From the NCBI GenBank assembly GCA_040905715.1, contig JBBDRA010000002.1, forward strand, positions 3,746-67,745: a stretch of 64,000 nt of DNA, given 5' to 3'. The stretch's first letter is position 1. Every line of letters begins with the position of its first letter. Of this stretch, positions 2,186-49,100 are shown one piece after another. The notes below the pieces were generated by a model. That model saw nothing but the letters and a program-made list of their open reading frames with translations, made no database searches and had not been told where the DNA came from. A program made the translations under genes and the position numbers. The DNA comes from Minisyncoccota bacterium (GTDB taxonomy: Bacteria; Patescibacteriota; Minisyncoccia; Phycocordibacterales; CSBR16-193).

Positions 2186-2586
2186 ACTATGTATGACAAA
2201 TTACCTCTTAATAAACACAGTAAAGGGGCACCCGCATAACGGATACCCCTTTCCATAAAACTTATTATACACCCCACCACATTTCTAACAAAGATAAATG
2301 TGGACAACTAATATACTGCTTCTATCGCAACACTGATCGGATAGTGTTCCGCTAGAGAAAATACCGACGAAGTTTGATTCCCGCTTCTTTTTCCTATAGT
2401 ATTTTCATATCAGTATGTTTGTGAAAGAAGGTCTTTCAGGACCGAACCTGCCTGCCGGCAGGCAGGTTCGGACGAAATGTTCCGCCCGAGGCGGACCGTT
2501 TCGCTCCTCACTTGCGCCCGTAAGAAAATCTTTCAAACACTGCGTTCCAAGAAAATACAAGCAAGCTTGAATTTTACTTCTCACTT

Positions 2587-2658
2587 GCGCCCGTAGCTCA
2601 ATGGTAGAGCGCGAAGCTTATACCTTCGTGGTTCCCGGTTCGAATCCAGGCGGGCGCA
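2587..2658 (+). tRNA. tRNA with anticodon UAU (putative tRNA-Ile decoding AUA)
   Basis: Folds by hand into a cloverleaf: 7-bp acceptor stem GCGCCCG/CGGGCGC, U8 A9, D-arm GCTC/GAGC, anticodon stem CGAAG/CTTCG with loop CTTATAC (U33, anticodon 34-36 = TAT), T-loop TTCGAAT and discriminator A. There is one C-A mismatch in the T-stem and CCA is not encoded. Confidence 0.7.
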
Positions 2659-2923
2659 CAAAATATGCGAAGCAGATTTTTGGTGTCTGCAAGGAGAGCA
2701 TTTCTGCTCTCCTGTCTGGATGAGAAAGGCGGAGCCATGTCGCACGGAGCGGAGCGAGTACGACGGGCGAGCCCGGCCAGGAGCCCACTTAGCGAATGAA
2801 GACCGAAGGGATGAGTGAGCTTAGTGAGCTGACGGCGAATCCAGGCGGGCGCACCAGACAATAATACAAAACAGCCTTGTGGTTAAACAGGGCTGTTTTT
2901 TGAAACTCTCATAAGACGATCAC

Positions 2924-5970: not shown

Positions 5971-5982
5971 CTCGACTCCGTA

Positions 5983-24530: not shown

Positions 24531-24586
24531 AATAAAATATTAGAGTTATATTAGAGTTAACTCTAATATAACTCTAATATTTTATT
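24531..24586. terminator. 56-nt perfect palindrome (TATTAGAGTTA motif x2 on each arm) abutting the kinase stop
   Basis: AATAAAATATTAGAGTTATATTAGAGTT / AACTCTAATATAACTCTAATATTTTATT. A U-rich tail follows on the minus strand. Confidence 0.6.
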
Positions 24587-27222: not shown

Positions 27223-27266
27223 AGCTTACGTAATATAGTCTCTTTCCTCCATCCTCCAGAGCCATA

Positions 27267-27320
27267 GGAAAGTGTTCTTAAAGTGGTTGGGGGAGGGTCT
27301 GGGCTTTAAGAACACTTTCC
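27267..27320 (-). promoter_or_regulatory. 17-bp-stem hairpin in the rplO-secY spacer
   Basis: GGAAAGTGTTCTTAAAG...CTTTAAGAACACTTTCC. The adjacent polypyrimidine CCTCCATCCTCC gives a GGAGGATGGAGG SD for secY on the minus strand. Confidence 0.4.
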
Positions 27321-27332
27321 CTATTGCGACTT

Positions 27333-29382: not shown

Positions 29383-29392
29383 AATTTTAAGT

Positions 29393-29490
29393 TCTAGGCG
29401 CTAGGCGCTAGGCTTTTTGTAGTAGATCCTGAGACACATCCTCTCACAGGAGGTATCAGCTTAATACAAAAAGCCTAATTCCTAAACGGT
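29393..29490 (-). repeat. structured intergenic element, family E (GGCGCTAGGC tandem repeats plus AGGCTTTTTGTA...TACAAAAAGCCT hairpin) in the rpsH-rplF spacer
   Basis: CTAGGCGCTAGGCGCTAGGCTTTTTGTAG...ACAAAAAGCCTAAT. A related element sits at 43964-44034. Confidence 0.55.
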
Positions 29491-29495
29491 TACTG

Positions 29496-29885
29496 TTACC
29501 AGATGGTGAACAGTATCTCGCCACCAACATTTTCTTTACGAGCCTCCTCTGCGGTCATAACTCCTCGAGGAGTTGAGAGGACCGCGTGACCATAGCCGTG
29601 GCGGACCGGTCGAAGGTTCTTTGATTTCTCATACACTCGACGAGACACCTTTGAGATACGATTCGTTCCTTCGATCGCACTCTTACCCTGCTCGTCCTGA
29701 CTCATGTGAATTTCGATCACCTTTGTAGGCTGGCTCCCCTTGTGATCAGCACCACTAATGTACCCGTGCTTAGCAAGTGTTTCCGCAATTGCCATCTTCA
29801 GCTTCGAATACGGAATAGTCACCGACGGCTTTCCGGCGGTGTTCGCGTTCTTGATCTGAATTAGCATGTCAGCGATAGGATCCAT
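29496..29885 (-). CDS. rpsH: ribosomal protein S8
   Basis: MDPIADMLIQIKNANTAGK... The open frame extends to 29912 but would then read through the repeat element, so the start is set at 29885. Confidence 0.9.
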   Translation of the reverse strand: MDPIADMLIQIKNANTAGKPSVTIPYSKLKMAIAETLAKHGYISGADHKGSQPTKVIEIHMSQDEQGKSAIEGTNRISKVSRRVYEKSKNLRPVRHGYGHAVLSTPRGVMTAEEARKENVGGEILFTIW

Positions 29886-29904
29886 AGATGAATTCGTTGT
29901 TATT

Positions 29905-30001
29905 GAGAGCAAGCTTTGCTTACTCTAACAAGTGAGGAGCGAAACGGGAATGCGTCAGCATTCACATTTCGTCCGAACGCAGTTAGAGCAAGCTTTGCTT
30001 A
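29905..30001 (-). repeat. structured intergenic element, short variant of family R, bounded by an 18-nt direct repeat AGAGCAAGCTTTGCTTAC
   Basis: Direct repeats at 29905-29922 and 29984-30001. The core ACAAGTGAGGAGCGAAACGGGAATGCGTCAGCATTC resembles the 5' part of the 31352 and 37183 elements. The second repeat copy overlaps the rpsN stop codon. Confidence 0.55.
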
Positions 30002-30184
30002 CCAACTTGCTTTCTTAATACCGGGCACTTCACCGCGGTTCGCTCTCTCACGAAAGCAGATGCGGCACAATCCAAAGTCACGCATGTACCCGCGAACTCG
30101 ACCGCACAAAACACATCGTCGAATTGTTCGAGTTGAGTATTTTGGCGTCTTTTTTGATTTTGCGATGAGTGCTTTACGTGCCAT
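29999..30184 (-). CDS. rpsN: ribosomal protein S14 (zinc-ribbon type Z)
   Basis: 61 aa with [20 protein letters not shown]. Confidence 0.9.
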
Positions 30185-30214
30185 AGATACTTCGTTTGTT
30201 CTTCCTTCTAGCTC

Positions 30215-30300
30215 TCCAAATAAAAATGCCCTTTCGAGCCGCGCTTATTTCAAAGCTTGTCCAGAACAATGAGGAGCATGCTTGCATGCTATCCTCGATC
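30215..30300 (-). repeat. intergenic element, family F (AAATAAAAATGCCCTYTCGAGC ... CATGCTATCCT) in the rplE-rpsN spacer
   Basis: Shares two blocks with 34388-34445. The surrounding rplE-rpsN spacer is 291 bp, which is unusually long for this operon. Confidence 0.45.
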
Positions 30301-30475
30301 GTCGTCACAGACATATCCGGCATAAAACGGTTTCTCACTGATAGACGTATACTATGCGTCTATCACTTCGGCACCGTTTTCTGCCACGAATCTGTCTGCA
30401 ACTTTGGATCGAGACAAGGCTTTTCAATAAGCTCCCGCCATCCTAGCAGGACATGTACCCAATGTCAACGCGAGA

Positions 30476-31024
30476 CTACGCCTTAACTTCCTCCTTTTGG
30501 AAAGGGAATCCAAGGTGTCGGAAGAACCCTTCAGCAGTTTCGCGATCATTCGAGGTAGTAACGATCGTGATACCCATTCCAAAGACATTCCTCAACTCCT
30601 CATCACTGGTTTCCGGGAAAATAGTGTGCTCCTGGATACCAAGCGTGTAGTTGCCCATCTCATCGATCGGCTTTGTTGGAATGCCGTGAAAGTCCTTCAT
30701 GCGCGGCATCGCCAAGTGAATAACCTTATCGAGAAAGTTATACATTAACTCGCCACGCAGTGTTACCTGGTAGCCTACCGGCGTACCCTCACGAAGCCCG
30801 AATGCTGCGATCGACTGCTTTGCCAATGTCCGCACCGGTCGCTGTCCGGTGATACGGGCCAATCGATCCTCAATGATCTCAATCTTCTCTTTGTCCTTAG
30901 TTGAACCGGTGCCGATATTGACCACGATCTTCTCCAGACGAGGCGTTTCCATTCGATTAGTATAACCGAATTGGTCTTTCAGTGCGTCAAACGCGGTTTG
31001 TTGTTTTTGTTTTACTGATTCCAT
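30476..31024 (-). CDS. rplE: ribosomal protein L5
   Basis: RMETPRLEKIVVNIGTG...GMGITIVTT. Confidence 0.9.
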   Translation of the reverse strand: MESVKQKQQTAFDALKDQFGYTNRMETPRLEKIVVNIGTGSTKDKEKIEIIEDRLARITGQRPVRTLAKQSIAAFGLREGTPVGYQVTLRGELMYNFLDKVIHLAMPRMKDFHGIPTKPIDEMGNYTLGIQEHTIFPETSDEELRNVFGMGITIVTTSNDRETAEGFFRHLGFPFQKEEVKA

Positions 31025-31032
31025 ACTATAAA

Positions 31033-31341
31033 CTAAATACTTTTGCCGCTTTTTTTGCTTATCCGAACTTTTTTCCCTTTATCGTCTGTCTTATAACCAA
31101 CGCGGGTTGGTTTTCCGGAATCCGGGTCAACAAGAGCAACATTTGATACATCGATCGGCTGATCGATCTCAATGATCTCGCCGTGCTTGTTCGACGCCTT
31201 CGATCGTTGATGCTTTTTCTTAGTATTAACACCATCGACGACCACTTTGTTCTCAGCAGACAGCGTTTTAGACACGACACCTACGGTGCCCTTGTCTTTG
31301 CCTGCTATCACTATTACGTTGTCATTTTTTTTGATTTTCAT
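31033..31341 (-). CDS. rplX: ribosomal protein L24
   Basis: MKIKKNDNVIVIAGKDKGTVGVV (KOW motif). Confidence 0.9.
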   Translation of the reverse strand: MKIKKNDNVIVIAGKDKGTVGVVSKTLSAENKVVVDGVNTKKKHQRSKASNKHGEIIEIDQPIDVSNVALVDPDSGKPTRVGYKTDDKGKKVRISKKSGKSI

Positions 31342-31351
31342 ATATCGATTA

Positions 31352-31484
31352 CTTCGACAAGCGAGGAGCGGTCGGGAGCTTACCTGCGAATCAGGATGCT
31401 CCCGATTTCTTAGCTTCGGAGAAGCTGTAGAAATCGCAGTCCTGTGCTCCCGTTGTGTCCGAGCGCCGTCGAAGCAAGGTTTGC
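31352..31484 (-). repeat. ~130-nt structured repeat, family R copy 1, in the rplN-rplX spacer
   Basis: About 90% identical to 37183-37310. It contains terminal inverted repeats CTTCGAC...GTCGAAG and internal hairpins GGGAGC...GCTCCC and AGCTTC-gga-GAAGCT. It abuts the rplN stop codon. Confidence 0.65.
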
Positions 31485-31856
31485 TTACAAGATCTCCGGC
31501 GCAAGCGACGCAATACGCTGAAAACCCTTCTCGCTTATCTCGCGCGGAATCGGTCCGAAGATACGGCCACCGATAGGCTCAACTCCTTTATCATCAACCA
31601 ATACAACCGCATTCTCATCGAATCGGATATACGAGCCGTCTTTTCGTCGATAGGCGTCCCGCTGGCGAACAATAACCGCTCGCATAACCGCTTTCTTCTT
31701 TACCTGCTTACGAGGCTCTGCCCGCTGAACCGCCAGCACAACCAGATCCCCGACTCGCGCATACCGGCGACGTGATCCACCAAGAACCTTGAACACCTTG
31801 CCGATGCGAGCGCCTGAGTTATCTGCGATTTTTACTATGCTGCCTTCTTGGATCAT
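31485..31856 (-). CDS. rplN: ribosomal protein L14
   Basis: MIQEGSIVKIADNSGARIGKVFKVLGGSRRRYARVGD. Confidence 0.92.
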   Translation of the reverse strand: MIQEGSIVKIADNSGARIGKVFKVLGGSRRRYARVGDLVVLAVQRAEPRKQVKKKAVMRAVIVRQRDAYRRKDGSYIRFDENAVVLVDDKGVEPIGGRIFGPIPREISEKGFQRIASLAPEIL

Positions 31857-31865
31857 ATAAGTATA

Positions 31866-32156
31866 TTATTCTTCGGACGACGTGTTATCGGTTTCTACCG
31901 GCACTCGATTCACAACGACAAAACGTTTGTCCTTTGAGATCGGTCGCGACTCCTGAATGGTCACCTTGTCACCTACCCGGCACTCGTTCTTTTCATCGTG
32001 TGCTTTGTAACGCTTGTTCGGCGCAATGTACTTTTTGTACCTTGGGTGCTGCACAAAACGAGTAGTTTCAACCACGATCGTTTTGTTGCTCACATCTGAT
32101 ACAACCACCCCTTCCAGAGTGCGTCCTGTATTCTGTTGTGCCGTTGTAGATTCCAT
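31866..32156 (-). CDS. rpsQ: ribosomal protein S17
   Basis: [33 protein letters not shown]. Start set at 32156 (MESTTAQQ...) to avoid overlapping rpmC; the open frame extends to 32204. Confidence 0.85.
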
Positions 32157-32160
32157 ATGA

Positions 32161-32352
32161 TTAAGATGTGACGCGCTGGTTGAGCTCAGTGAGTATTCGA
32201 GCAATATCTTTACGAAGATTGCGCCCCTCCTTCACGTCTCGTGTTTTGGTCCCGGCAATATTAAAACGAAACTCACGCAGTTCCTTGCGCTTTTCATTCA
32301 ATGCCTTGCCGAGTTCGGACTCGGCCATATCTGTATAGTTCTGCTGGGACAT
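32161..32352 (-). CDS. rpmC: ribosomal protein L29
   Basis: 63 aa, [34 protein letters not shown]. Confidence 0.85.
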
Positions 32353-32406
32353 AAATCGAAATTTAAGCTATCACACAATTACGTTACAAGCAACTTTACA
32401 CGCTCC

Positions 32407-32823
32407 TTAGTGTCGGCCCACGAACCTCGTGCGCACCGGCAGCTTTGTGCCAGCCTTTCGAAGAGCCTCACGTGCTGCCTCTTCTGAGATACCGTCGACC
32501 TCAAACAGTACCTGACCGGGACTGATCGGGGCACAGTACCCTTCCGGATCACCCTTACCCTTACCAAGCTTCACCTCCGCCGGTTTTTTGGTAAACGGCA
32601 TATCCGGAAATATACGGATCCAGACCTTACCCATTTTGCCAACATTTCGAGACAGCACTTTACGAGCTGCTTCGATCTGACGCGATGTTATCCGTTCATG
32701 GTCGACCGTTTTCATGCCGTACGCACCGAAGTTTACTTCAGTACCACGGCTGGCCATACCACGCTTTGCAGGGTGCTTGCGCGCTGTTTGCCATTTTCGA
32801 AATTTTACTTTTTTGGGAAACAT
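32407..32823 (-). CDS. rplP: ribosomal protein L16
   Basis: MFPKKVKFRKWQTARKHPAKRGMASRGTEVNFGAYGMKT. Confidence 0.92.
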   Translation of the reverse strand: MFPKKVKFRKWQTARKHPAKRGMASRGTEVNFGAYGMKTVDHERITSRQIEAARKVLSRNVGKMGKVWIRIFPDMPFTKKPAEVKLGKGKGDPEGYCAPISPGQVLFEVDGISEEAAREALRKAGTKLPVRTRFVGRH

Positions 32824-32834
32824 AATACTAAAAG

Positions 32835-33515
32835 CTATACACTTCGGACTGAACGCTGATCTTCTTCGAACACCTCACCTCGATAGATCCAAACTTTTAT
32901 ACCGAGGTGTCCGTACGGCAACCACGCCTCAATAAGTGCGTAATCAATATCCGCGCGAAATGTCTGAAGTGGGATCTGCCCCTGCTGAGTCTTCTCTACT
33001 CGTGACATTTCTGCGCCACCTAATCGACCGGATAGTTCGATTCGCACACCACGCACATCTTTATTCGCCATAACCTTCTCGGCTGTTTGCTTCATCACCC
33101 GACGGAACGGCATACGCTTCTCAAGTCCCTCACGGATCATCTGACCAACAATAGCCGCGTCTGACTCCGGAGAACGAACCTCTTTCACATCAAGCTTTAA
33201 CTCTGCGGTAACCGGAACTTGGTTGCGACGAAGCATTGCTTCGATCTCTTTCTTGATCTTGACCGCTCCCTCACCGTTACGACCGATAATAACACCCGGA
33301 CGTGACGACTCAACAATAACCGTAAGCTCTTTTTCGTTGCGTTCGATGTTGATAGAGCTTACATACATGTTCGCAAGCCGCTTTTTCAAAAACTCACGGA
33401 TCAAAAGATCACCTTTAAGGTATTCACGGTATTTTTCTTTCGCCCCAAACCAACGTGACTTCCAGTCACGGAGAATACCGAGGCGATGTGAATATGGGTG
33501 AACAATGTGAGTCAT
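32835..33515 (-). CDS. rpsC: ribosomal protein S3
   Basis: MTHIVHPYSHRLGILRDWKSRWFGAKEKYREYL...GVIIGRNGEGAVKIK (KH domain). Confidence 0.92.
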   Translation of the reverse strand: MTHIVHPYSHRLGILRDWKSRWFGAKEKYREYLKGDLLIREFLKKRLANMYVSSINIERNEKELTVIVESSRPGVIIGRNGEGAVKIKKEIEAMLRRNQVPVTAELKLDVKEVRSPESDAAIVGQMIREGLEKRMPFRRVMKQTAEKVMANKDVRGVRIELSGRLGGAEMSRVEKTQQGQIPLQTFRADIDYALIEAWLPYGHLGIKVWIYRGEVFEEDQRSVRSV

Positions 33516-33550
33516 ATATCAATACTTAGTAATTCGTAGATCGTATAAAA

Positions 33551-33967
33551 TTAAGCAGCTGCTTTTGCGGTAGTCTTCTTTTTAGGTGCCTTCTTTTCAG
33601 TTTTCTTTGTCTCAGCTTTCTTATTGGTTTTTTTGGAAACGAATTCTTCAAGCTCAACAAAAACATGAGAATTGCGCTTGCGAATGACCTTCGCCTGCCC
33701 CTGAGCTGCCGGCATTCGGCGGAAAAGGATCAACCCGTCATTTACTGTTGCCTCCTTAACTCGAAGCTGCCCGTCAATACCGCGCTGTCGGGCATTTGCC
33801 TGAGCAGATTCAATAAGCTTTCTCACCGGTTCAGCCGCACGCTTTGTGGTAAAACGCAGAATAGCAACCGCCTCATCGGCTGACTTACCTTTGATCAGAT
33901 CTGTCACCAGCCGTGTTTTACGCGGGGCGATCCTAAGGTTTTTTAACTTTGCGGTTGTTGTTTTCAT
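33551..33967 (-). CDS. rplV: ribosomal protein L22 with Lys-rich C-terminal tail
   Basis: LRIAPRKTRLVTDLIKGKSADEAVAILRFTTKRAAEPVRKLIESA. Confidence 0.9.
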   Translation of the reverse strand: MKTTTAKLKNLRIAPRKTRLVTDLIKGKSADEAVAILRFTTKRAAEPVRKLIESAQANARQRGIDGQLRVKEATVNDGLILFRRMPAAQGQAKVIRKRNSHVFVELEEFVSKKTNKKAETKKTEKKAPKKKTTAKAAA

Positions 33968-33988
33968 AATACTATTCTACACAGCGCT

Positions 33989-34312
33989 CTACGCCTTTGA
34001 GGCCTGTGCCGCGGCTATTGCGCTCTGTTTCTTCTGCTGCTCAAGCTCTTTCTGGATCTTTCCACCGTGACGAATGAACTTACGCGTTGGCGCAAATTCA
34101 CCGAGACGATGACCAACCATATCCTCGGTGATAAAAACATCTACATGCACTTTTCCTTGGTGAACACCAAAGGTATAGCCAACCATTTCCGGTGCGATCT
34201 GACTATCGCGTGACCATGTCTTAATAACCCCAACCTGTTTTGGGTCTTTCCCTTCGATCTTTTTCAAGAGCTTGGGGTCAACGTATGGTCCTTTTTTAAG
34301 TGATCGTGTCAT
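33989..34312 (-). CDS. rpsS: ribosomal protein S19
   Basis: [19 protein letters not shown]...[18 protein letters not shown]. Confidence 0.92.
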
Positions 34313-34387
34313 GAATTAGCTTATAGGTTATAACTTGCAGCTTATAGTATAGAAGAGAAAGGAATCTACTATCAGCGGTAAAGTATA

Positions 34388-34445
34388 CCCTAAATAAAAA
34401 TGCCCTCTCGAGCTCATGCTATCCTACCAGAGCAATGAATGAAGT
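34388..34445 (-). repeat. intergenic element, family F copy 2, in the rplB-rpsS spacer
   Basis: CCTAAATAAAAATGCCCTCTCGAGCTCATGCTATCCT matches blocks at 30215-30300. The rplB-rpsS spacer is 154 bp. Confidence 0.45.
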
Positions 34446-34466
34446 CAAGCGCAAATTAACCGTTTT

Positions 34467-35306
34467 CTAGCGCTTTTTAGACTTTCTTCGGGAAACAATA
34501 TTCTTATCAGAATATTTCTTCGAGGTGCGGGTTTTCTGACCAACATTGACCGGCTTGCCCCACTTGCTTTTGCGTCGCTTGCGTGCACCTCGCGCATGTG
34601 CCTCACCACCACCCATCGGGTGATCAACGGCGTTCATCGAACGACCGTTTACCTTCGGTCGGCGGTTCATCCAGCGCGCTCGTCCTGCTTTACCGATCGT
34701 CTCCAGGTGATGTTCCTCGTTCGACACTTCACCAATAGACGCCCAGGCACCGGATGGAACCCGTCGAACCTCGCTCGACGGCATCTTAACGTGCACAAAT
34801 CCCTCTTCTTTAGCAGCCACCTCAGCGTGAATACCGGCTGATCGGGCGATTCGTGAACCGCCATATGGCTTGAGCTCCACGTTGTATACAAAGGTACCAA
34901 TAGCTATATTCTTCAGCGGCAATCGATTGCCAGGCTTCAACGGCGCTTGTTCAGAGACGAGCAGTTGGTCGCCTACAGAAACGCTCTGCGGAAGTACAAT
35001 GTACCGCTTTGCTCCGTCCGCATACACAACCAGACCGATGTAAGCACTTCGGTTCGGATCATATTCAACCGTGCGAACAGTCATTGGAATATTAACCTTC
35101 TCCATTACAAAGTCGACGTCCCGATGTCGCCGCTTGTGACCACCACCTCGACGACGAGAAGTGATCCGTCCGTGAGCATTACGACCGCTTGAGCCTCGCT
35201 TACCCTTTGTAAGAGACTTGAGTGGCTTGGATGCCGTAAGCACACCTCGTGTGGATGCGGTGGTCATCTGGCGTCGTGATGGTGTTGTAGGTTTATAGTG
35301 CTTCAT
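34467..35306 (-). CDS. rplB: ribosomal protein L2
   Basis: GRNAHGRITSRRRGGGHKRRHRDVDF and the C-terminal GGGEAHARG. Confidence 0.95.
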   Translation of the reverse strand: MKHYKPTTPSRRQMTTASTRGVLTASKPLKSLTKGKRGSSGRNAHGRITSRRRGGGHKRRHRDVDFVMEKVNIPMTVRTVEYDPNRSAYIGLVVYADGAKRYIVLPQSVSVGDQLLVSEQAPLKPGNRLPLKNIAIGTFVYNVELKPYGGSRIARSAGIHAEVAAKEEGFVHVKMPSSEVRRVPSGAWASIGEVSNEEHHLETIGKAGRARWMNRRPKVNGRSMNAVDHPMGGGEAHARGARKRRKSKWGKPVNVGQKTRTSKKYSDKNIVSRRKSKKR

Positions 35307-35310
35307 AATT

Positions 35311-35673
35311 CTACATTAACTCGATCTTGTCTCCTTTCTTCAAATAAACATAAGCCTTCTTTCCACCGCGCTTAACACCGCGAATACCTCGTCGTGAAAC
35401 CGGTTTGGTAGGTATTGTGACGACATTAACCTTCGTCACCGTTACACCGTACACCCGCCGTACTGCGGCAGCGATCTCCGGCTTCTTCGTACCCGGTCTC
35501 ACATTAAATACATACACATTATCGCCGGTACCGATCGCCGCCTTCTCGGTAATACGAGGTCGCATAAGCACATCCTCAACTGCCGGCATAAGTGCGCGCT
35601 TAGCAGCATCAGAAGCACTGGTAGCTGCCTTCGAGTCTTTGCCTTCCTGTTTTTTTGATCCGAATAAAGCCAT
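35311..35673 (-). CDS. rplW: ribosomal protein L23
   Basis: NVYVFNVRPGTKKPEIAAAVRRVYGVTVTKVNVVTIP. Start set at 35673, abutting the rplD stop; the open frame extends to 35712. Confidence 0.88.
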   Translation of the reverse strand: MALFGSKKQEGKDSKAATSASDAAKRALMPAVEDVLMRPRITEKAAIGTGDNVYVFNVRPGTKKPEIAAAVRRVYGVTVTKVNVVTIPTKPVSRRGIRGVKRGGKKAYVYLKKGDKIELM

Positions 35674-35674
35674 G

Positions 35675-36355
35675 TTATGTGTTTGAAGTCTCACTTTCAA
35701 CTGAACCCTCAAGCACCTTAAGCGCCTGTTCAGGGTCAGAGATGATCACGTACTTGTACTGAGCAACATCGGTTGCGTTCAGATTACGCACCTCGTCAAA
35801 CTGCACGTTTCCAAAGTTATGAAAGCTGCGCTTTGCACCAGGAGTTGTTGATCCTACCGCAACATATGCGGCGTTCTTTCGTTTTGTTGCAAGGCTTTCA
35901 AAGCCCTTCACACCGCCAAGCGCTTCAAGTGTGCGCTTGGCCTCGGCTGTCTTTGCCTCATCAAATACAAGAGAATCGACGAACAAAACCTCGCCTTCAC
36001 GAAACTTGCGTGACAGCACAGTATACAGCGCCTTTCGTTTCATCTTCTTGTTGATCTGTCGCTGGAAGTTTTCCTCGTTGCGCGGACCATGAGTTACTCC
36101 ACCGGTTCGCCAAATAGGTGAACGTGAAGACCCGTGTCGAGCGCGACCGGTTCCTTTTTGACGCCACGGCTTTTTACCACCACCGCTCACCTCACTTCGG
36201 TCTTTCACGAAAGCCAAGTGCTGACGACGATTTGCTTGCTGAGACAGAACAACCTGATGAACCAAGTCACCGTTCCAGGCAACTCCAAAAACGCTCTCGG
36301 GAAGGTCGATCTCCCCTTTTTTAGTGCCTGCTTGTGTATAAACTGGTGCCTTCAT
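35675..36355 (-). CDS. rplD: ribosomal protein L4
   Basis: GGGKKPWRQKGTGRARHGSSRSPIWRTGGVTHGP. Confidence 0.92.
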   Translation of the reverse strand: MKAPVYTQAGTKKGEIDLPESVFGVAWNGDLVHQVVLSQQANRRQHLAFVKDRSEVSGGGKKPWRQKGTGRARHGSSRSPIWRTGGVTHGPRNEENFQRQINKKMKRKALYTVLSRKFREGEVLFVDSLVFDEAKTAEAKRTLEALGGVKGFESLATKRKNAAYVAVGSTTPGAKRSFHNFGNVQFDEVRNLNATDVAQYKYVIISDPEQALKVLEGSVESETSNT

Positions 36356-36366
36356 ATATTAGATCA

Positions 36367-37011
36367 TTACTTACCTTGTATCTCAACAAGACATCCTCGT
36401 CGACCTGGAACCGCCCCTTTAACGGCGATCACTTGCTGCTCTGGGTCAACATACACTACATCGAGGTTAGTGACCGTAACACGGTTTGAACCCATTCGTC
36501 CAGGCATCTTTCGACCTTTAAACACACGCTGAGGCCCGGTTGCTCCAATAGAACCAACTTCACGATGAGCGTGTTTCGTACCGTGAGACTTCGATGCTCC
36601 GCTGAAACCGTGACGCTTCACGCCACCCTGAAATCCTTTACCTTTCGTAATACCGGATACACGAACCTCGTCACCAACCGCAAACACTGACACATCGAGT
36701 GTATCGCCTACTGAAGCAGATGACTCCGTCTCATCCTGACGAAACTCACGTAGCCATCGAAAGCTGGTTTTCTCAGCATCTTCGCCAACCGCTTCAAGCG
36801 CTGCTTTAGAGTGCCCACGGACCGGCAAGGATGTAGTGTGTGCCTTACGACGTCCAAAACCAACCTGAACCGCTGAGTAGCCGTCGGAGGTATCACTCTT
36901 CACCTGTGTAACCACAGCTGGCCCGGCACGAAGTATGGTTACCGGCACCATTTCACCTTCTTCGGTGAAGATCTGAGTCATATATTCTTTTGTTCCTAGC
37001 AGAAATTTCAT
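36367..37011 (-). CDS. rplC: ribosomal protein L3
   Basis: GITKGKGFQGGVKRHGFSGASKSHGTKHAHREVGSIGATG. Confidence 0.92.
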   Translation of the reverse strand: MKFLLGTKEYMTQIFTEEGEMVPVTILRAGPAVVTQVKSDTSDGYSAVQVGFGRRKAHTTSLPVRGHSKAALEAVGEDAEKTSFRWLREFRQDETESSASVGDTLDVSVFAVGDEVRVSGITKGKGFQGGVKRHGFSGASKSHGTKHAHREVGSIGATGPQRVFKGRKMPGRMGSNRVTVTNLDVVYVDPEQQVIAVKGAVPGRRGCLVEIQGK

Positions 37012-37182
37012 ACATCGAGATTATACCTTCGCTCTAAACGAACGAGGTGTTGAAGGCAGACCATCGTTGATGATCCAAACCTTACAATGAATTCACATCC
37101 TTAGAGAAGTGGACCGCCGCCAAGCGTACCATTTTTATCTCAGATTCACAATAAATTTAGACGAGCTTTACATCAATACTCA

Positions 37183-37310
37183 CTTCGGCAAGCGAGGAGC
37201 GGTCGGGAGCTTATCTGCGAAGCAGTATGCTCCCGATTTCTTAGCTTCGGAGAAGCTGTAGAAATCGCAGTCCTGTGCTCCCGTTCCGTCCGAGCGCCGA
37301 CGAAGAAAGC
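37183..37310 (-). repeat. ~130-nt structured repeat, family R copy 2, in the rpsJ-rplC spacer
   Basis: Near-identical to 31352-31484 (CAAGCGAGGAGCGGTCGGGAGCTTAYCTGCGAA...GCTCCCGATTTCTTAGCTTCGGAGAAGCTGTAGAAATCGCAGTCCTGTGCTCCCGTT...). The rpsJ-rplC spacer is 343 bp. Confidence 0.65.
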
Positions 37311-37354
37311 TCCCTTTCTACGCCGTCGAGCGAACAACATCGCACAAACTTTGC

Positions 37355-37735
37355 CTATACTAATTTCACGTCAATGCTTACACCCGACGGAAGCGACAGG
37401 TTCGATAGTGACTCGATCACCTTCTGAGATGGGTTGAGAATATCGATCAAACGCTTGTGGATCCGCATTTCAAACTGCTCCCGAGAGTCTTCGTACACGA
37501 ACGCAGCGCGATTTACCGTGTACGACTTCACTCGTGTGGGAAGCGGGACCGGTCCAACCACCTCAGCATCGTAGCGGATCGCTGTATCAATGATCTGTTT
37601 TACTGACAGATCAAGGATCTTATACTCATACGCGCTAACCCGAATACGAAGCTTCTGTGTTGTGCCGTCCGAATCTTTTGAAGATGCTTTCTTTTTCGAA
37701 GCTGGTTTTTTTGTTTTTTGTGTACTATCTGCCAT
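37355..37735 (-). CDS. rpsJ: ribosomal protein S10 with Lys-rich N-terminal extension
   Basis: [39 protein letters not shown]. Confidence 0.92.
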
Positions 37736-37808
37736 ATTTTAGGCGTTTTGCTCTGAGCCCTAGGTGCAGGAGACGCTCGTAAGTGTCTCAAGCCAGACTA
37801 CAGACTAC

Positions 37809-39002
37809 TTATTCAACGATCTTTGTCACTACTCCAGCTCCCACAGTCTTACCCCCTTCGCGAATAGCAAAGCGCTGCTGCTCTTCGAGTGCAACCGGTG
37901 CCTGCAAACTTACGCTGAACGTAGTTGTGTCACCTGGCATTACCATCTCTACTCCTTCCGGAAGGGTTACCTCACCGGTAACGTCAGTGGTTCGGATGTA
38001 GAACTGTGGCTTGTATCCGGTTAGGAATGCTGTGTGACGACCCCCTTCCTCCTTCTTAAGGGTGTACACCTCAGCCTCAAACTTGGTGTGCGGGGTAACT
38101 GAGCCCGGCTTTGCCAACACCTGACCGCGGTGAACCTCTTCTTTCTTGAGTCCACGGATCAAAATACCGGCGTTGTCACCTGCTTTTCCTTCCTTAAGTG
38201 ACTTGTTGAACATCTCAATACCGGTCACTGTGGTCTTCTGTGTATCTTTGATACCGACGATCTCGATCTCTTCACCAACAGTGATCTCTCCTCGCTCAAT
38301 ACGGCCTGTTACTACAGTACCGCGACCTTCAATCGAGAAGATATCCTCAACCGGCATAAGAAACGGCTTGTCGGTCTCACGCTGAGGTGTCGGAATGTAG
38401 TCATCCAACGCCTTCGCAAGCTCAAGGATCTTTGCAGCATACTCTTCGCTTGCGTCTGAAGACTCAAGAGCCTTTAGGGCTGAACCTCGAATGACCGGCG
38501 CGTTTTCTCCGTCGTAATCGTACTGAGTCAAAAGCTCACGCACCTCTTCTTCAACAAGGTCGATAAGATCAGCGTCATCAACCATGTCGCACTTGTTTAG
38601 GAAGATGATGATCTTCGGCACTCCAACCTGCTTAGCGAGCAGGATGTGCTCTCGCGTCTGCGGCATAACACCGTCAGTTGCGGCAACTACTAATACAGCA
38701 CCGTCCATCTGAGCGGCACCCGTAATCATGTTCTTCACATAGTCGGCGTGACCCGGCGCATCGATGTGCGCATAGTGACGAGCATCTGTTGAATACTCGT
38801 TGTGAGACAATGCGATCGTAATACCGCGAGCCTTCTCCTCAGGCGCGGCGTCGATCTGGTCTACGTTCTTCTCTGACACGTCCTGCCCCGAAAGGTGGAG
38901 AACGTGCAGAATAGCAGCGGTTAAGGTCGTCTTCCCGTGGTCAACGTGACCAATGGTACCGACATTAACATGCTCTTTTGATCGATCAAATTCTGCAGCC
39001 AT
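37809..39002 (-). CDS. tuf: elongation factor Tu
   Basis: [52 protein letters not shown]. Confidence 0.97.
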
Positions 39003-39397
39003 AATGACGTACTACTAAAAGTATTGATAATAATTGCGTTTTGCCCCCACACCTATTTGTCCCAAACCTCCACTATAGAGAGAAACAAGTGTGGGGGTGT
39101 GTACCTCGATTGCACACCACATCCTGTGTATTCACAACCCTTCGGGGCTCATGAAAGACAAGAAAAAAGCGCACAATTGCGATGAAGACTATCCTAACAG
39201 ACCGCTGATAATAGTCAAGCGACTTTGTTTTCTTTTAAGCGAAGCCTTGTGCATTTTTTTCAAAATGCACGGAGCGGAGCGAATTAAAAAACACAAAATA
39301 CCCTGGTGACACGAAGGGAGGGCGAAAAAACGTTCTACATACGTGATTCGGTGATCCGTGAGCGTTTCTTCGACCACTCTCTTCTTCTCTTTCTCTT

Positions 39398-39606: not shown

Positions 39607-39641
39607 AATATTAGAGTTAAATTAGAGTTAACTCTAATATT
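39607..39641. promoter_or_regulatory. TATTAGAGTTA-containing palindrome (partial copy of the 24531-24586 palindrome)
   Basis: AATATTAGAGTTAAATTAGAGTTAACTCTAATATT, with the perfect core ATTAGAGTTAACTCTAAT. Confidence 0.5.
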
Positions 39642-39720: not shown

Positions 39721-41679
39721 TTAATCAACAATAACCACCTCGTTATAGTCCCAGCTTCCCCGGCGATAAGGCGCAGTATCACCAAGCTTGGTATTTTCAA
39801 TATAGATATCCTTCACCGGTAATTCGGTCACGCCGAAGACTCGGCCGTGGAACCACGAATCTTTCACTACAAGATGGTCAGCTGATTCAATAGTGAGCGA
39901 GTGTGGCCACCACTTATCTTTTTCCTCGTGTCGATTTGAAAGCTCGATATTAACAAAGGCAATATCTTTGTCTGTGTCCCCTCCCATAAAGAACCCTTGG
40001 GAATGAATATCCTTTGTTGCTGTCACGCCGTATGCGATCTGATTCTTTGATGAGCCCAAAAGTTGATACACGTCGGGGTGTGCGGTTGGTACACCAGACT
40101 TATCACGGTCGACATCTTCCACTGAACTATTGAGCAGCAGTCGAGCATTAGTGAACGAGTCCTCACCGATACGATGAAGGTCCGTATTTCGCACAATGTT
40201 CCCGCTAAATCCTTTAACATTGTTCGTCAAAGAAGAATTCGTAATATGCGTACTAACCACGTCTGCGGACCAGCGAACACTGTTTGACCGCTCATTGCCG
40301 ACAATATTCAGATCATCCATCCAAATATGCCGGGCAAAACGCCCACCAGCAGAATGAGCATGGAAAAGGATCCCTACATCCGGCAACTGAAAGCGAATGC
40401 CACTGACCAGTAAATGATTATTAGTAAAACGTTCCTTTAAATTGTTCGTAACAATAACGTCATTCCGTGATGTGCCGGGAGCACCGGAAACGACCACCCA
40501 GGTATCACTATCAATACCTTCCAGTCTAAATCCGTCATACGTACCTGCCTGTAGATATATCACCGGCGCTCGACTACCATCGTTTTTGGCTGCCACGCTC
40601 GCCTTCCATACGGTCTTATACGGGTTATTTTTTGAGCCGTCACCGCTCTCATCCGACCCCCCAGGCGATACATAGTAGTGATCGGGGTCATACGTTCCAT
40701 TCTTGTTAACCACTAGCTCAATGCCATGCTCGCCGCGCGGAGCACCATTAATATCTCCGGCCAACACCCGTGCCACCCCTTTATTTGGATATACCACCGC
40801 CCGCACTTCAACCGGGCCATCTACGCTGAACTTAGACGCATCAAGAGTTGCCCAGTATTCCTTCACATCAGTGCGCGGATTATGAGTCATTGTAGAGACT
40901 GAAGTCCATGGACCGCCATCGACCGAAAACTCAACCCGATCGATGCTGTCTTTATGAAAAGCAACAACTCCCACATTAAATATATTGGAAAATGACTGGA
41001 ACGGCACCACATCCCACCGAGCGATCGCCTGGGCATCTTCATTCCCGATCTGGTCAGGTTGAGGGGTCTCTCCTGCAAAACCATTTCCAGGAACGAGAAC
41101 TTTTCCTTCCGGAGCAGAGGTGTCTCTTTCCTTCTCCTCTTCTTCTCTCGTATCTTCTTGTTCATCGTCACCCTGCCCACTAACACCATCGTCTTTCTTG
41201 TTGGCAGTATCGTCGTTCTCTTCTTCGTTATTTTTTTCTTTGTCTGACTCCTGATCCTCCTTATCTTCCTCGTCCGCTTCGTCTCTAGAATCTCTCTCAT
41301 CCTTCGATCCATCATCTTCCGACTCCTCTGAGTCTGGTTCATCCTGCTTCTCAACGTCGTCTTCAGATCTATCTTCACTCTCATCTGCTTGATCCGGCTT
41401 AGTATCATCTTCCTCATCATTCTGTTCCTCTTCACGACCTTCTCCATTATCAGCCGAATCTCTAGACGTTTCTTCCACTTCCTCCTCAGTTTCATCGTCC
41501 TTTAAAGCGGTCTTCTCCTCTTTGCTACTATCATCAGACTCACGTTCCTCGTGCGGCACCACCGTTAAAGAGTTAGTGTCGTCGTTTTCCGTCCCAGAGG
41601 GGTTTGATGCACCAGAAACACCCCCGGCAAGTAAAACGAGGAGGAGCATTGGAAACAGGACTGAGTTTTTGTTTGCCAT
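39721..41679 (-). CDS. secreted right-handed parallel beta-helix (pectate-lyase/DUF1565-like) protein with long acidic low-complexity linker and Ig-like domain
   Basis: Signal peptide MANKNSVLFPMLLLVLLAGGVSGAS, then a D/E-rich linker of about 170 aa. YYVSPGGSDESGDGSKNNPYKTVWKASVAAKNDGSRAPVIYLQAGTY is the hallmark start of a beta-helix domain, followed by repeated N/S-rich beta-helix rungs. It is inserted between fusA and tuf. Confidence 0.6.
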   Translation of the reverse strand: MANKNSVLFPMLLLVLLAGGVSGASNPSGTENDDTNSLTVVPHEERESDDSSKEEKTALKDDETEEEVEETSRDSADNGEGREEEQNDEEDDTKPDQADESEDRSEDDVEKQDEPDSEESEDDGSKDERDSRDEADEEDKEDQESDKEKNNEEENDDTANKKDDGVSGQGDDEQEDTREEEEKERDTSAPEGKVLVPGNGFAGETPQPDQIGNEDAQAIARWDVVPFQSFSNIFNVGVVAFHKDSIDRVEFSVDGGPWTSVSTMTHNPRTDVKEYWATLDASKFSVDGPVEVRAVVYPNKGVARVLAGDINGAPRGEHGIELVVNKNGTYDPDHYYVSPGGSDESGDGSKNNPYKTVWKASVAAKNDGSRAPVIYLQAGTYDGFRLEGIDSDTWVVVSGAPGTSRNDVIVTNNLKERFTNNHLLVSGIRFQLPDVGILFHAHSAGGRFARHIWMDDLNIVGNERSNSVRWSADVVSTHITNSSLTNNVKGFSGNIVRNTDLHRIGEDSFTNARLLLNSSVEDVDRDKSGVPTAHPDVYQLLGSSKNQIAYGVTATKDIHSQGFFMGGDTDKDIAFVNIELSNRHEEKDKWWPHSLTIESADHLVVKDSWFHGRVFGVTELPVKDIYIENTKLGDTAPYRRGSWDYNEVVIVD

Positions 41680-41789
41680 AGAATAAAATATGTGGCTGAA
41701 ATAACACATCAATCTATACTATAAAAAAAGACAAAGCGCAAGGGCTTTGTCTTTTTTGTATCTTGGTTTCTCTCTTGATCGGGCGAGAT

Positions 41790-46187: not shown

Positions 46188-49100
46188 CTAAAACTCCTCG
46201 TACCGTGGATCCACAGAAATATTGATCTTGTTGTTAGCACTACCAGGCACTTCACATTCAGTATACGTACCACCGTCACTGGATACTTCGGGTGAATCTT
46301 TCTCTCCAACCGTACTGTACCGAATGTCGATCTCATCTCCGCTGGAAGAAACTTCGGATCCTTCAGGAACAGACCATATATATGTTTCCCCGCCAGGAAT
46401 CACAACCCATGTCACTGACGTATTAACAGGATAGGTATATGTTCCGTCTTCGTTTGGAAGTGGCTCACAGCTGAGAGTGGTTGACGTTTCGCAACTATTG
46501 GTCGTGACCGTAACCGAATCAGATCCATACGATTCACTCGTATTATCGCTGTTGACCGCCTCTACTTTATAAACATACTCTGTAGAAGTTGCAATTGTTG
46601 GAGGTGATGACACTGCCGGGTCTCTATATTCCGTATCAGCGACTGTCTCAAGAGATGAGAACGCTAAATCCGGTTCCGTTGACAACTTCCTAAACACCTC
46701 ATACCAGATCCCTGCTGTAGTTCCGTCCCAATCCAATTCTACGTACGCATCGTTTGCATCACAGCTTTCTGTAGCCTGTAGGTCAGTCGGCTCAGGCTCA
46801 CATACCGAAACTGATGCCGTATCTTCCACCAAAGTACCGTCTGATGCCGCCGCGCATTGCAATGTGTACTCGTATAGTGACTCGGTATTTGTTAGACCGA
46901 CCTGCGTATCGCTTCCCCCAGCAGAACTTTTGTTTCCTGTCCAATCCCCCGAGGAGGAAGAAGCGGAACAAAACTCTTCAAGCGCACCGGCGGTTTCCCA
47001 CTCCAGATCAATATCGCTTCCATATGGCACACACCCGCCCCCGTCTCCTACTGAGTTTCCGCCACTAAACGCCTCCAGATCCACAGATTCCTCTTCAAGA
47101 TAGAGGAAAGCCACGTGCGTTATCAAACCTTCCGGAATAGACGGAGAAACATTCGTCACTGAGCACCACCCACCACTGCACGTCGGCGTTATCGTGTAGA
47201 GCGCCGGATCAGAGAAGTCACAAGATTCTGTGATCTCGATACCTGTTTCAGGACTCATCTCGTATTCATCTACACACGTCGCCGCCCTAATAGTCCTGTC
47301 CGGATCGTCTTCGGCTTTAACGGTATAGGTGTACTGTTCACCGGTCGCAAGATCGCCGGCCGGTAGATCACTCCAATTCTGTGGATTCCCGTCGTACACA
47401 CCATCCGGAATGTTCATCTCTTCGTCAGGTGTGAACTCCGGCTCGAGCTGCGTATTCATCGGGACACGCACACCTCCTTCATCAACCCGGTGAGAGCTAA
47501 TATCCCCGGCAAGCGGACACAGATCGGAACCCGCTACATCTGCACTGTTTGAAATACAGATATCCATGATAACTCGGCCGAGCGCGCTAGGGAGATTAGC
47601 GTCTAACTCAGACTGACTCATCGAAGCGTAGTCATCCGAACTATATTCTACTTCAATGTAATATTCCTTGATTCGAACTTCTTTGCCTTTTATCAAAGGG
47701 ATCTCACCTTCTACAGTATCCGGTTCGAACTGTGGCTGACCGGTAACAGTATATGTCCGGTCTTCGAGGTGTTCCCACGCCGCATCAGGATCAGACAGAT
47801 CTCGCTGTTCAAGTACAATGACAAAATCATGACTTTTACCGGGAACCAGATCATCTACTTCAAATGAATACTCAACCTCACGCGCATCGACCTCGTAGAG
47901 GTCCATCCGATGAGCTTTGATATACGTACTTGCAGCGCCGTCATAAGTGGTGGTATATTCTCCGCCACTACTCCGAACATGATCAAGTCGGTTTTTTGCG
48001 TCGTTATAAAGATCGTCCGTTGTTCTTTCATCTAAGAAATCTATCTTTCTGTCGAAAGTCCAGTCAAGATCATTAGGGTCTGTGTCATCAGTTATGTTCG
48101 AACCACATCGGCCGTACAAACCGGCCCGCTCTAGATGAGAAACATATTCGGTGTACCGATCCTGATAGACATCTGGCTGACACTCGCCGTCTTCTGTTCC
48201 TTTAGTACACGAGCTTCTACTCGCCCTCCTGGCAGGACCCGTCTCACCATCATCCCGCACTGTTACCAACCTACCATCCTCATCATACTCATACCCAAGG
48301 TCCCAATCGAACTCTCGGTGTATACTACAATATCCCCACGTTCTATTTCCCGCATTATCTTCTCGCTCCCCTTCATCATACCCGACCCCACTATACTCAT
48401 CGGTATCTAAACACCTGTTTTCCCCCACATCATATTGTTCCTGCTGAGTGCGTAACCTGTCTCGATTACCTGAACTAAACTCATATCGACTTTCGTTTGT
48501 GTAAACCTGAGCATCTTGTTCATAGAAGAGATCTTCTTCCCAGGTCTCGAACCGACGCGGCTTCATATCTTCCGAAAAATGATATGTATATGCACCGCTC
48601 CAGTCCGACTGCTCAAGCTTCTCATTTATAGTCATGTCACCCCAAGAATCCATACAACTATCTATGCACTGATCATATTCATTAGAACCCCACTCATACC
48701 CTTGCTCCCAACAATGGGTATCGCAAGCATAGTATGCGTCATCCCACACTTGAAACTCTTCATTTTCATCGTAATAACCATAGCCCTCTTCAAGCCCCCT
48801 AAACCCACAGACCGGAATTTCATCTCTCACGATCGTATATTCACGTGAAATTCTCGGGTCGGGTACAATATAATTATTTGCCGACACCATTACAGGGAGA
48901 ATAGCTGCCTCACCCCACGCACCGTTTGGCGCGAGGTACTCCCCCGGCTGTGACTGGTGTTGCGAATTAAAGTAATAATATGTATGCGAGAAGCCTTCAT
49001 ACGAACTCGACCCATACCAATACCCCCACCCGTAGTAACCATACGGATCACATGTTCCGCTAGAGAATCCATCCGGTCCTAGAGCACGATCCTCATTAGA

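Follow-up and report, generated by a model that had tools for sequence, protein, structure and literature searches.

The 64,000-nt stretch of contig JBBDRA010000002.1 (assembly GCA_040905715.1), called the window below, raises the question of what kind of element interrupts the spacers of its S10-spc ribosomal operon. We refer to these elements as family R. An earlier note on this DNA took them for a spreading family of structured repeats, and this idea is supported by additional copies, by filled and empty sites among relatives and by covariation. Family R is a previously uncatalogued variant of the known bacterial interspersed palindromic repeats. More specifically we suggest, with what we judge to be an even chance of being right, that it is a structured interspersed repeat resembling repetitive extragenic palindromic (REP) sequences and miniature inverted-repeat transposable elements (MITEs), selfish or semi-domesticated, co-transcribed with its neighbors and, being a compact hairpin, tolerated or mildly useful. 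The bacterium that carries it belongs to the Paceibacteria, in the Candidate Phyla Radiation (CPR). Its ribosomal protein S3 is matched by Paceibacteria/Parcubacteria metagenome-assembled genomes (MAGs) at 55-66% identity, with one partial match of 84%, and MAGs labelled Candidatus Paceibacterota hold proteins identical or near-identical to those of the window. Exact look-ups of the L24 and S14 proteins of the window gave no record.

A covariance model built from the window copies was scanned, with filters off, over the 64 kb. It returned exactly four strong matches (c1 to c4, Table 1), and the two-part pattern of the core was found at four sites, versus 0.00 expected from shuffles. Three of the four intact copies fall in the 13-kb S10-spc block. 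Copies c1 and c2 are 94% identical across 128 ungapped nt (31351-31478 versus 37182-37309), where about 90% had been estimated; the identity includes the otherwise variable tip and points to a recent duplication. The shorter relative reported from the rpsN/rpsH spacer, c3, is real as judged by its model score, and the 18-nt direct repeat said to bracket it is exact (AGAGCAAGCTTTGCTTAC on the plus strand, at 29906-29923 and 29985-30002). Further copies exist beyond these three loci: c4 is intact, c4b is degenerate, two fragments are possible, and other genomes hold more. Copy c4 lies 63 nt upstream of a tRNA-Ile gene and is co-oriented with it. Between the two there is c4b, a decayed tandem copy, whose 3´ core end CUCACUUG reaches base +1 of the tRNA; a 16-nt direct repeat, CTCACTTGCGCCCGTA, occurs at 2507-2522 and again at 2580-2595, where it takes in the first nine tRNA bases. 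Copies c1 and c3 begin directly after the TAA of rplN and rpsN, respectively, and c1 ends 10 nt before the rplX ATG. The former suggestion that the element supplies the stop codon had to be dropped: the element abuts the stop, and rplN ends at the same TAA in relatives without the element.

All copies are hairpin-forming units of 65-130 nt with a common order of parts. From 5´ to 3´ these are UAA or GUAA(G), a small hairpin, an outer stem, an asymmetric loop, a 2-bp helix, a UC/UC loop, a GGA/UCC pairing and an inner stem. The first of them is present at most copies and holds the stop codon of the upstream gene in four operon cases (UAG at rpsJ). The small 5´ hairpin, of 4-7 bp, is usual, not present in every copy, and it covaries (GCAA/UUGC, AGAAAG/CUUUCU, AAGC/GCUU, AAAAGGU/ACCUUUU, AUCG/CGAU). 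The outer stem has 6-7 bp of variable sequence. It leads to an asymmetric loop, NNC opposite UU, and to the 2-bp helix G-Y/R-C, in which C-G, U-A and U-G are all seen; then follow the symmetric UC/UC loop, the GGA-UCC pairing, a bulged C on the 3´ strand and the inner stem, which opens with C-G. The invariant letters spell GYUCGGAC in the 5´ half of the core and CGCUCCUCRCUUG in the 3´ half (8 + 13 nt), and a variable tip of 20-86 nt sets the core halves 28-86 nt apart. Thus c1 consists of the 5´ hairpin GCAA-ACC-UUGC, the outer stem CUUCGAC/GUCGAAG, the core and an 86-nt tip; c2 has the 5´ hairpin AGAAAG-GGAG-CUUUCU; and c3 comprises GCAA-AGC-UUGC, the outer stem CUCUAAC/GUUAGAG and the core. 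Two subfamilies can be distinguished. Core-proximal sequence is identical in c3 and c4 (GUUCGGACGAAAUGU ... CCGUUUCGCUCCUCACUUG), and c1 and c2 share GCUCGGAC(R)NAACGGGAGC ... GCUCCCGACCGCUCCUCGCUUG and a longer tip.

Table 1. Coordinates of family R copies, their remnants and associated features (window positions unless a locus is named)
Feature	Position	Strand	Remarks
Copy c1, long form	31352..31484	-	rplN/rplX spacer; covariance model 77 bits
Copy c2, long form	37183..37320	-	rpsJ/rplC spacer; covariance model 79 bits
Copy c3, short form	29923..29998	-	rpsN/rpsH spacer; covariance model 89.7 bits; fold z = -7.4
Second 18-nt repeat unit (solo 5´-hairpin unit) downstream of c3	29906..29923	-	Absent from sister species
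Copy c4, short form, c3 subfamily	2455..2524	+	Covariance model 66 bits
Degenerate copy c4b	2534..2597	+	Model 10.5 bits in window scan, 13.8 bits in same-species assembly scan
tRNA-Ile, anticodon UAU	2587..2659	+	Downstream of c4 and c4b
Possible 5´-half remnant	37321..37354	-	Directly after rpsJ stop; GCAAAGTTTGTGCGATGTTGTTCGCTCGAC...; weak alignment to c3 5´ part (score 21)
Possible 3´-half remnant	about 30246..30301	-	rplE/rpsN spacer; ...GCAUGCUCCUCAUUGUUCUGGACAAGCUUUG...; sequence and local alignment, weak
Relic second S10 C-terminus, last 8 codons + stop (VSIDVKLV*)	37157..37183	-	Flush with c2 3´ end
CUC/CUC-loop rplN/rplX hairpins	L015:11996-12147, L032:2641-2797, L036:3569-3713, L045:1733-1874		120-150 nt class
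Start-proximal words	34313-34360, 29383-29410, 37736-37760; L085, L132 spacers		

The hairpins which the earlier note had seen in c1, c2 and c3 hold against dinucleotide shuffles. Each copy forms, on the transcribed strand, a single hairpin that is long and irregular (z = -4.9, -3.7 and -7.4, respectively). Pairing was further assessed in an alignment of 11 sequences fitted to the model, a procedure that favors structure somewhat. Standard pairs occupy 83.7% of the cells, versus 70% in shuffles and about 40% for slid partners; both sides change in 11 of the 19 pairs, and six of the seven outer-stem pairs covary. The observed pairing values were reached by 0/500 shuffles, so that covariation, proposed as a check, speaks for the hairpin. 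The strand on which the fold would function is a different matter. Modelled pairs include 6 G-U versus 10 A-C cells, which is no bias toward sense RNA, and the antisense strand folds 4-11 kcal/mol better in AT-rich copies, while in c3 and c4 it is the sense strand that folds better, by about 5 kcal/mol. The fold is thus not specific to the sense strand, and neither minimum free energies nor G-U/A-C counts single out the functional one. Read on the antisense strand, the UC/UC loop gives tandem G-A/A-G in the context Y-GA-R, a stable motif. Further, there are two possible partners for the 3´ half of the small 5´ hairpin, its own 5´ half and the 3´ flank AGUAAG.

Family R is defined by a fold with an invariant internal-loop core, not by conserved termini, and this bears directly on the possibility that it is a classical MITE, cut and pasted by a DDE transposase which acts on terminal inverted repeats and makes a short TA/TAA target duplication. 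Such an element would have inverted-repeat ends, small size, no coding capacity and patchy distribution, as R has, and TA or TAA stands on both flanks of most copies. Yet the terminal stems differ within one genome (CUUCGAC, CUCUAAC, none in c4) and the interior loop is conserved, which is the opposite of end recognition; across copies, the stems read CUUCGAC, CUUCGUC, CUCUAAC, UAUUCC and GAACAAC. Covarying stems require selection on pairing, and the element is asymmetric, with the small hairpin at its 5´ end only. The Correia elements of Neisseria and the ERIC/IRU MITEs illustrate the difference. Like R, they are non-coding inverted repeats of about 100-150 bp between operon genes, transcribed, flanked by TA-containing sequence and polymorphic in insertion, but they keep conserved terminal repeats for the transposase, whereas in R the terminal stems vary and covary around a constant interior core. 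An autonomous insertion sequence (IS) with the same or related ends was found neither in the window nor in the loci to which the models were applied. Around the copies, flanking repeats have lengths of 4, 16, 18 or 27 nt, and the length and variation of the latter three are hard to reconcile with a fixed target duplication. The MITE, one of the options in the earlier note, is not supported by the outer stem or the conserved loop, and no transposase was found in the window; we regard this explanation as improbable. Variable covarying stems around an invariant internal loop argue against DDE end recognition and for recognition of a folded structure. By analogy, this might proceed as with REPs and their RAYT enzymes, IS200/IS605 ends or attC sites.

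How can such an element reside in a ribosomal operon? The S10-spc cluster lies on the minus strand (tuf at 37809-39002, rpsJ, rplC ... rpsH, rplF ... secY), and its genes had been correctly assigned. The spacers with copies measure 143 nt (rplN/rplX, filled by c1), 343 nt (rpsJ/rplC, filled in part by c2) and 113 nt (rpsN/rpsH), and the 73-nt tuf/rpsJ spacer is free of R. It had been stated that such operons normally have spacers of only a few nucleotides. This holds for rplN/rplX and rpsN/rpsH but not for rpsJ/rplC, which is an operon break point in this clade and often takes in kilobases, presumably of other genes. In many related Paceibacteria (L002, L017, L047 and about 30 other loci from the S3 search) the rpsJ-rplC, rplB-rpsS and rplE-rpsN gaps measure 0.1-9 kb, usually more than 1 kb. 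These are exactly the junctions which have long, promoter-bearing spacers in the window.

Promoter-like sites of the form (C)GCTTGAC(A/T)-16/17-TAGGAT occur on the minus strand at 30440-30468, 34421-34448 and 39191-39218, that is, in the rplE/rpsN and rplB/rpsS spacers and upstream of tuf; a shared block, GCTCGARAGGGCATTTTTATTT, trails two of the three. From these sites the cluster seems to be split into the sub-operons tuf-rpsJ, rplC-rplB, rpsS-rplE and rpsN onward. No promoter-like or terminator-like site was found between rplN and rplX or between rpsN and rpsH, hence c1 and c3 must be co-transcribed with their neighbors, and for these two copies the assertion that the repeats form part of the ribosomal-protein mRNA can be upheld. 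Copy c2 closes the tuf-rpsJ unit and precedes a conserved promoter-like block, CGCTTGGCGGCGG. We also considered R as a promoter, as the CGCUUG of its 3´ core resembles the local -35 box CGCTTGAC. This was rejected: a -10 box at the right distance is missing, and the promoters scanned are located elsewhere.

Comparison of close relatives shows that the element comes and goes. Within the species (a Logan assembly and GCA_040881535.1), contigs L081 and L082 end inside c1 and L081 begins inside c2; breaks where c1 and c2 are identical are expected for a genuine genomic repeat. Copies c4 and c4b are present in three same-species assemblies. Same-species sequence beyond the window, a few kb past its left end and none past its right, contains no further copies. 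The window species carries R at rpsJ/rplC, rplN/rplX, rpsN/rpsH and upstream of tRNA-Ile. In the sister species GCA_040879455.1 (S8 83% and L24 78% identical), the rpsJ/rplC spacer has 146 nt without the element, the rplN/rplX spacer has 19 nt, and the element is found solely at rpsN/rpsH (L132:5719-5801, 57.9 bits). In a further relative, GCA_040880645.1 (S3 84%), a diverged copy sits at tuf/rpsJ, beginning directly after the tuf UAA; the rplN/rplX spacer is 7 nt, and no R match occurs in the rest of its contig L046, including the 170-nt rpsJ/rplC spacer. Filled and empty sites, which the earlier note had asked for, are thereby confirmed, with rplN/rplX spacers of 7-19 nt and an empty rpsJ/rplC in two sisters. 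When an improved model was run on 47 more distant Paceibacteria S10-spc loci (728 kb), it matched L046 and a degenerate copy in L017 alone, the latter upstream of rpsS and beginning with GUAAGUAAACUUGCUUGC.

The L132 copy deserves closer attention. It is orthologous to c3, with the left flank UGGUAAGCAAAGCUUGCUCU and the right flank UCAAUAACAACGAAUUCAUCUAUG kept; the second 18-nt repeat unit is missing. Its outer stem, CUCUGAC/GUCAGAG, differs from CUCUAAC/GUUAGAG of c3 by one compensatory change (A-U to G-C). Its interior is of the c1/c2 type, minus a 52-nt block which in c1 and c2 is bounded by CGGGAGC repeats. The rpsN/rpsH junction has thus kept its element through a species split while interiors were exchanged or remodelled; an interior of the other subfamily at an orthologous site points to exchange between copies.

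The flanks tell something about the arrival of new copies. UAA or GUAA(G) stands at the left of c1, c3 and the L046, L054, L055 and L017 copies (UAG at c2), and at the right of c1, c3, c4 and the L054, L055, L060, L076 and L017 copies. In the sister, the place of c1 is taken by 8 nt that separate UAA from a conserved (G)UAAUCG. A different trace was left at c2, where a relic second end of rpsJ adjoins the element. Compared with the real gene end, 9 of its 27 bases are changed, all of them synonymously, so that both ends must have evolved as coding DNA. The segment with R thus arrived along with a gene end through recombination that involved a diverged allele, and the resident end was displaced.

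This relic, with its purely synonymous differences, is an argument for a scenario in which R has no dedicated mobility at all and is moved by ectopic recombination or gene conversion and by transfer of segments between related strains, to be then inherited vertically. The swapped interior at the orthologous rpsN/rpsH junction and local tandem duplications would also be accounted for. But the same core is found before unrelated genes in hosts whose Ndk proteins are 56% identical, and non-homologous junctions share just UAA or GUAA in their flanks, so we think recombination alone a very improbable explanation.

The copies in those distant hosts come from an exact-pattern scan of metagenome contigs, which returned 26 loci. 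Six are convincing by the model and represent four distinct sequences: L054, L055 (= L059), L060 (= L067) and L076, all of them AT-rich. The L055 copy stops 9 nt short of the ndk ATG. The Ndk encoded there is 56% identical to that of the window, whose own ndk gene is not preceded by R. Locus L060 has a sense copy with its end 9 nt upstream of a cyclophilin gene; a minimal second copy faces it head-to-head on the opposite strand, and a hibernation-factor gene lies upstream of the element. L054 has two tandem copies linked by UAAGCAGAGCUUG, the same linker as the direct repeat of the window, and in L076 two tandem copies occupy a divergent promoter region. The genes near the distant copies are unrelated to each other (ndk, cyclophilin, a gene divergent from an aldolase gene, and an unknown gene). 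The core is invariant across far-apart hosts, and the distribution is sparse and the gene context varied. A viral origin was considered and rejected, as a looser core pattern gave 43 IMG/VR matches, none of which was convincing with the model.

Copies that are nearly identical, that are gained and lost and that occur in tandem, inverted or as fragments, together with swapped interiors and sparse spread, amount to the behavior of an interspersed repeat. Non-allelic copies, a covarying fold and presence/absence polymorphism among relatives, the marks of a structured interspersed repeat, were all found. The arrangements are rather disorderly: besides tandems (L054, L076, c4/c4b), L060 has an inverted pair standing head-to-head, and both fragments and a solo 5´ unit occur.

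In the model we propose, new copies would arise by duplicative insertion at gene junctions having UAA or GUAA(G), and copies would exchange interiors by recombination. The folded core, with its 8 + 13 conserved nt, would be recognized by a trans-acting enzyme, probably while the nucleic acid is single-stranded; no candidate for this enzyme is encoded in the window. Once inserted, the element would be transcribed within the operon mRNA or the tRNA leader. It might be tolerated there as one compact hairpin which keeps the upstream stop and the downstream start close and leaves little unstructured RNA. The hairpin may also shield flanking mRNA from exonucleases; an RNase J-like beta-CASP nuclease is encoded in the window itself, which makes protection of mRNA ends by R hairpins plausible. 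The mode of mobilization, tolerance through compact folding and mRNA stabilization are all presumed steps.

Several observations weigh against our preferred reading. The rpsN/rpsH copy persisted across a species split with a compensatory change, and the core is invariant across deep divergence. Among the loci compared there is no clean pair of empty and filled sites that would define a fixed target duplication. Genes for a transposase, recombinase or reverse transcriptase are missing from the window, nor did any turn up on the short contigs with other copies. About 10 of 11 insertions point with transcription when tandem and orthologous copies are counted once (binomial p ~0.006 by our own arithmetic), and a selfish element acting purely at the DNA level need not be oriented in this way. 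As c4 is on the plus strand although GC skew shows one replichore throughout, orientation follows transcription, not replication. The bias may reflect a role at the RNA level. It may equally reflect counter-selection of antisense copies, which would place GAGGAG, a strong Shine-Dalgarno-like sequence, in the mRNA.

A role at the RNA level is the substance of another explanation, in which R is a dedicated cis-acting structured RNA. Its loop would be bound or cleaved by a protein, such as an RNase or an RNA chaperone, that processes or stabilizes transcripts for translation and housekeeping, and duplications would expand the regulon. The invariant core on covarying stems across distant hosts would then be readily understood, and so would the orientation bias, in which c4 takes part from the opposite DNA strand. 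Translation genes are frequent neighbors (S10-spc junctions in three species, tRNA-Ile, rpsS in L017, the hibernation-factor gene in L060), many 3´ ends lie 9-13 nt from start codons that lack a Shine-Dalgarno sequence, and the two-species history of the rpsN/rpsH copy and the alternative partner of the 5´ hairpin, AGUAAG in the 3´ flank, fit as well. On the other hand, sister species do without the element at the same junctions, and the associated genes are heterogeneous. Wobble statistics do not favor the sense strand, and one copy is antisense (L060). Near-identical tips, fragments and nested remnants are atypical of regulatory RNAs, isolated elements gave no Rfam match even at E up to 10, and the loops are pyrimidine-rich, not of the usual purine-rich kind; RNA tertiary motifs are usually purine-rich in their loops. 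We consider this explanation possible, if rather doubtful.

A special case would be a small self-cleaving ribozyme of a new type that cuts the polycistronic transcript or the tRNA leader. Conserved nucleotides confined to internal loops of a covarying scaffold, tandem copies and several copies per genome are what one might expect of it. No known ribozyme model matches, however. There is no sign of a pseudoknot or of a multi-helix junction, the loops, rich in pyrimidines, are short, and the strand statistics are neutral; a ribozyme is extremely improbable. Partial likenesses seen by eye to HDV-like, hammerhead and hairpin ribozymes, K-turn, T-loop, the Ro stem of Y RNA, boxA and the S8 site of 16S rRNA were not taken as membership. 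Peptide coding was rejected: antisense GAGGAG-ATG mini-ORFs (open reading frames) are in differing frames between copies, and the sense frame that runs on without a stop into ndk in L055 and into the cyclophilin gene in L060 has no counterpart in the window.

Does family R belong to anything already described? At gathering threshold, Rfam release 15 recognized tmRNA and tRNA only in the whole window. Permissive scans (29400-37800, and c3 and c1 alone; E up to 10) gave chance-level matches with E above 1, scans of loci with other R copies gave nothing relevant, and literature searches on CPR/Patescibacteria found no description of such repeats. The closest parallel to the repeat we envisage is offered by REPs and bacterial interspersed mosaic elements (BIMEs) of enterobacteria and pseudomonads, served by the Y1 HUH transposase RAYT. 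They too are extragenic imperfect palindromes inside operons, co-transcribed, occurring as single, tandem and inverted-pair copies at positions partly conserved between related species. REPs have a GTAG motif by the hairpin, and the small 5´ hairpin of R, with GUAA or GUAG before it, resembles a REP unit. REPs are known to stabilize upstream mRNA. Differences are also clear. REPs measure 20-40 nt and R 65-130 nt, the conserved part of R is an internal loop within a long hairpin, R has a strong transcription-oriented bias, and no RAYT gene was seen among the scanned proteins of the window and those annotated on neighboring loci. As to copy number, the window contains four intact copies in 64 kb.

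Other families share single traits. Rickettsia palindromic elements (RPEs) are likewise selfish palindromes of 100-150 bp in very small genomes, at essential genes and structurally harmless, but they insert in frame into coding and RNA genes, whereas R is intergenic and no conserved reading frame passes through it. Mycobacterial MIRU repeats are intercistronic in operons, often tandem and oriented with transcription, and extend from the upstream stop to near the downstream start, as R does. They carry small ORFs which overlap the neighboring stop and start codons; R copies are hairpins, and three-frame translation of the c1, c2 and c3 spacers revealed no started ORF bridging the genes.

Integron attC sites resemble R in a number of structural details: 57-141 nt, a folded single strand, an outer 7-bp box, an unpaired spacer, a mismatched inner box with an extrahelical base, a variable terminal structure and a position between a stop codon and the next start codon. 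However, attC conserves the outer box and R the inner one. Only c3 comes near the attC consensus RYYYAAC/GTTRRRY (CUCUAAC/GUUAGAG, 6/7 each); the copies c1, c2, L055 and L060 depart from it. An integrase gene is absent from the window, as is a cassette array, and the flanks are core ribosomal-protein genes in conserved order. An unlikely but attractive thought is that R is a CPR-specific functional motif, the invariant pyrimidine-rich loop of which (or the tandem G-A of the antisense strand) docks a dedicated protein that either processes and stabilizes translation transcripts or mobilizes the hairpin by structure-specific, attC-like recombination of single strands, which would be new to this phylum.

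Several other structures accompany R in this operon. The rplE/rpsN spacer holds a 125-nt near-perfect hairpin unrelated to R (30290-30432, minus strand, -61.6 kcal/mol, z = -7.8), just downstream of a promoter-like site. Unique long hairpins occupy the 113-nt rpsH/rplF spacer (29383-29495, minus strand, 14-bp perfect stem, z = -3.6) and the 110-nt rplO/secY spacer (27223-27332, minus strand, 18-bp perfect stem). The rplN/rplX spacer is 83-152 nt long in 9 of 42 other Paceibacteria (median 20 nt), with other hairpin families inside. From these unrelated hairpins, hairpin-forming inserts seem to be what ribosomal junctions accept or use. One of the families, with a CUC/CUC loop (GCAUUGCYUCGUUGC ... 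GCCUCGCACUGC), is kept at rplN/rplX in four genomes (Table 1), and another, with a GCAUUAGGRAAGCA tip, is common to L001 and L042. Short words just upstream of start codons, TATAAGCT/ATAGCT, CCTAGCG and GTAGTCT, recur in this species and its sister.

Some further features of the window are recorded here. A 34-nt AT-rich palindromic repeat, AATATTAGAGTTAAATTAGAGTTAACTCTAATAT, occurs twice, at 24536-24581 downstream of a uridylate-kinase-like gene by adk and at 39607-39641 ahead of the tuf promoter region; its role could be that of an operator or of a terminator acting in both directions. The tmRNA (5520-5973) is long, with 454 nt versus the 374 positions of the model, and is adjoined by a small GIY-YIG nuclease gene (6106-6375), with smpB nearby. 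A tRNA-Ile with UAU anticodon, such as that downstream of c4, is uncommon in bacteria. Just past the left end of the window, in same-species sequence (L130:7700-8043), there are two occurrences, some 290 nt from each other, of the 5´ portion of a long-arm tRNA (GGAGAGGTGCCAGAGCGGTCGAATGG...), and contigs stop at this place; an insert-interrupted tRNA or a partial duplication may be the cause. Very large genes without a Pfam match lie by translation genes (39721-41712, 46188-50837, 51042-54713). The large gene between fusA and tuf is acidic and of low complexity, and a different gene takes that place in the sister species.

CPR/Patescibacteria genomes are small and gene-dense and are generally regarded as repeat-poor. 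Family R is notable for its CPR host, for its location in S10-spc and for its conserved core on a covarying scaffold. The repeat has been active over the time in which sister species separated, and this within the cell's most conserved operon, hence even CPR genomes host proliferating non-coding elements. Tight ribosomal junctions, of 7-19 nt or overlapping, can take more than 100 nt if the insert folds. In practical terms, R causes metagenome assemblies to break within the block of ribosomal-protein genes on which CPR phylogenies are widely based, and its differences between sister species could serve as a strain marker for close lineages. Finally, the invariant core on a covarying scaffold should allow the recognizing enzyme or RNA-binding protein to be found.

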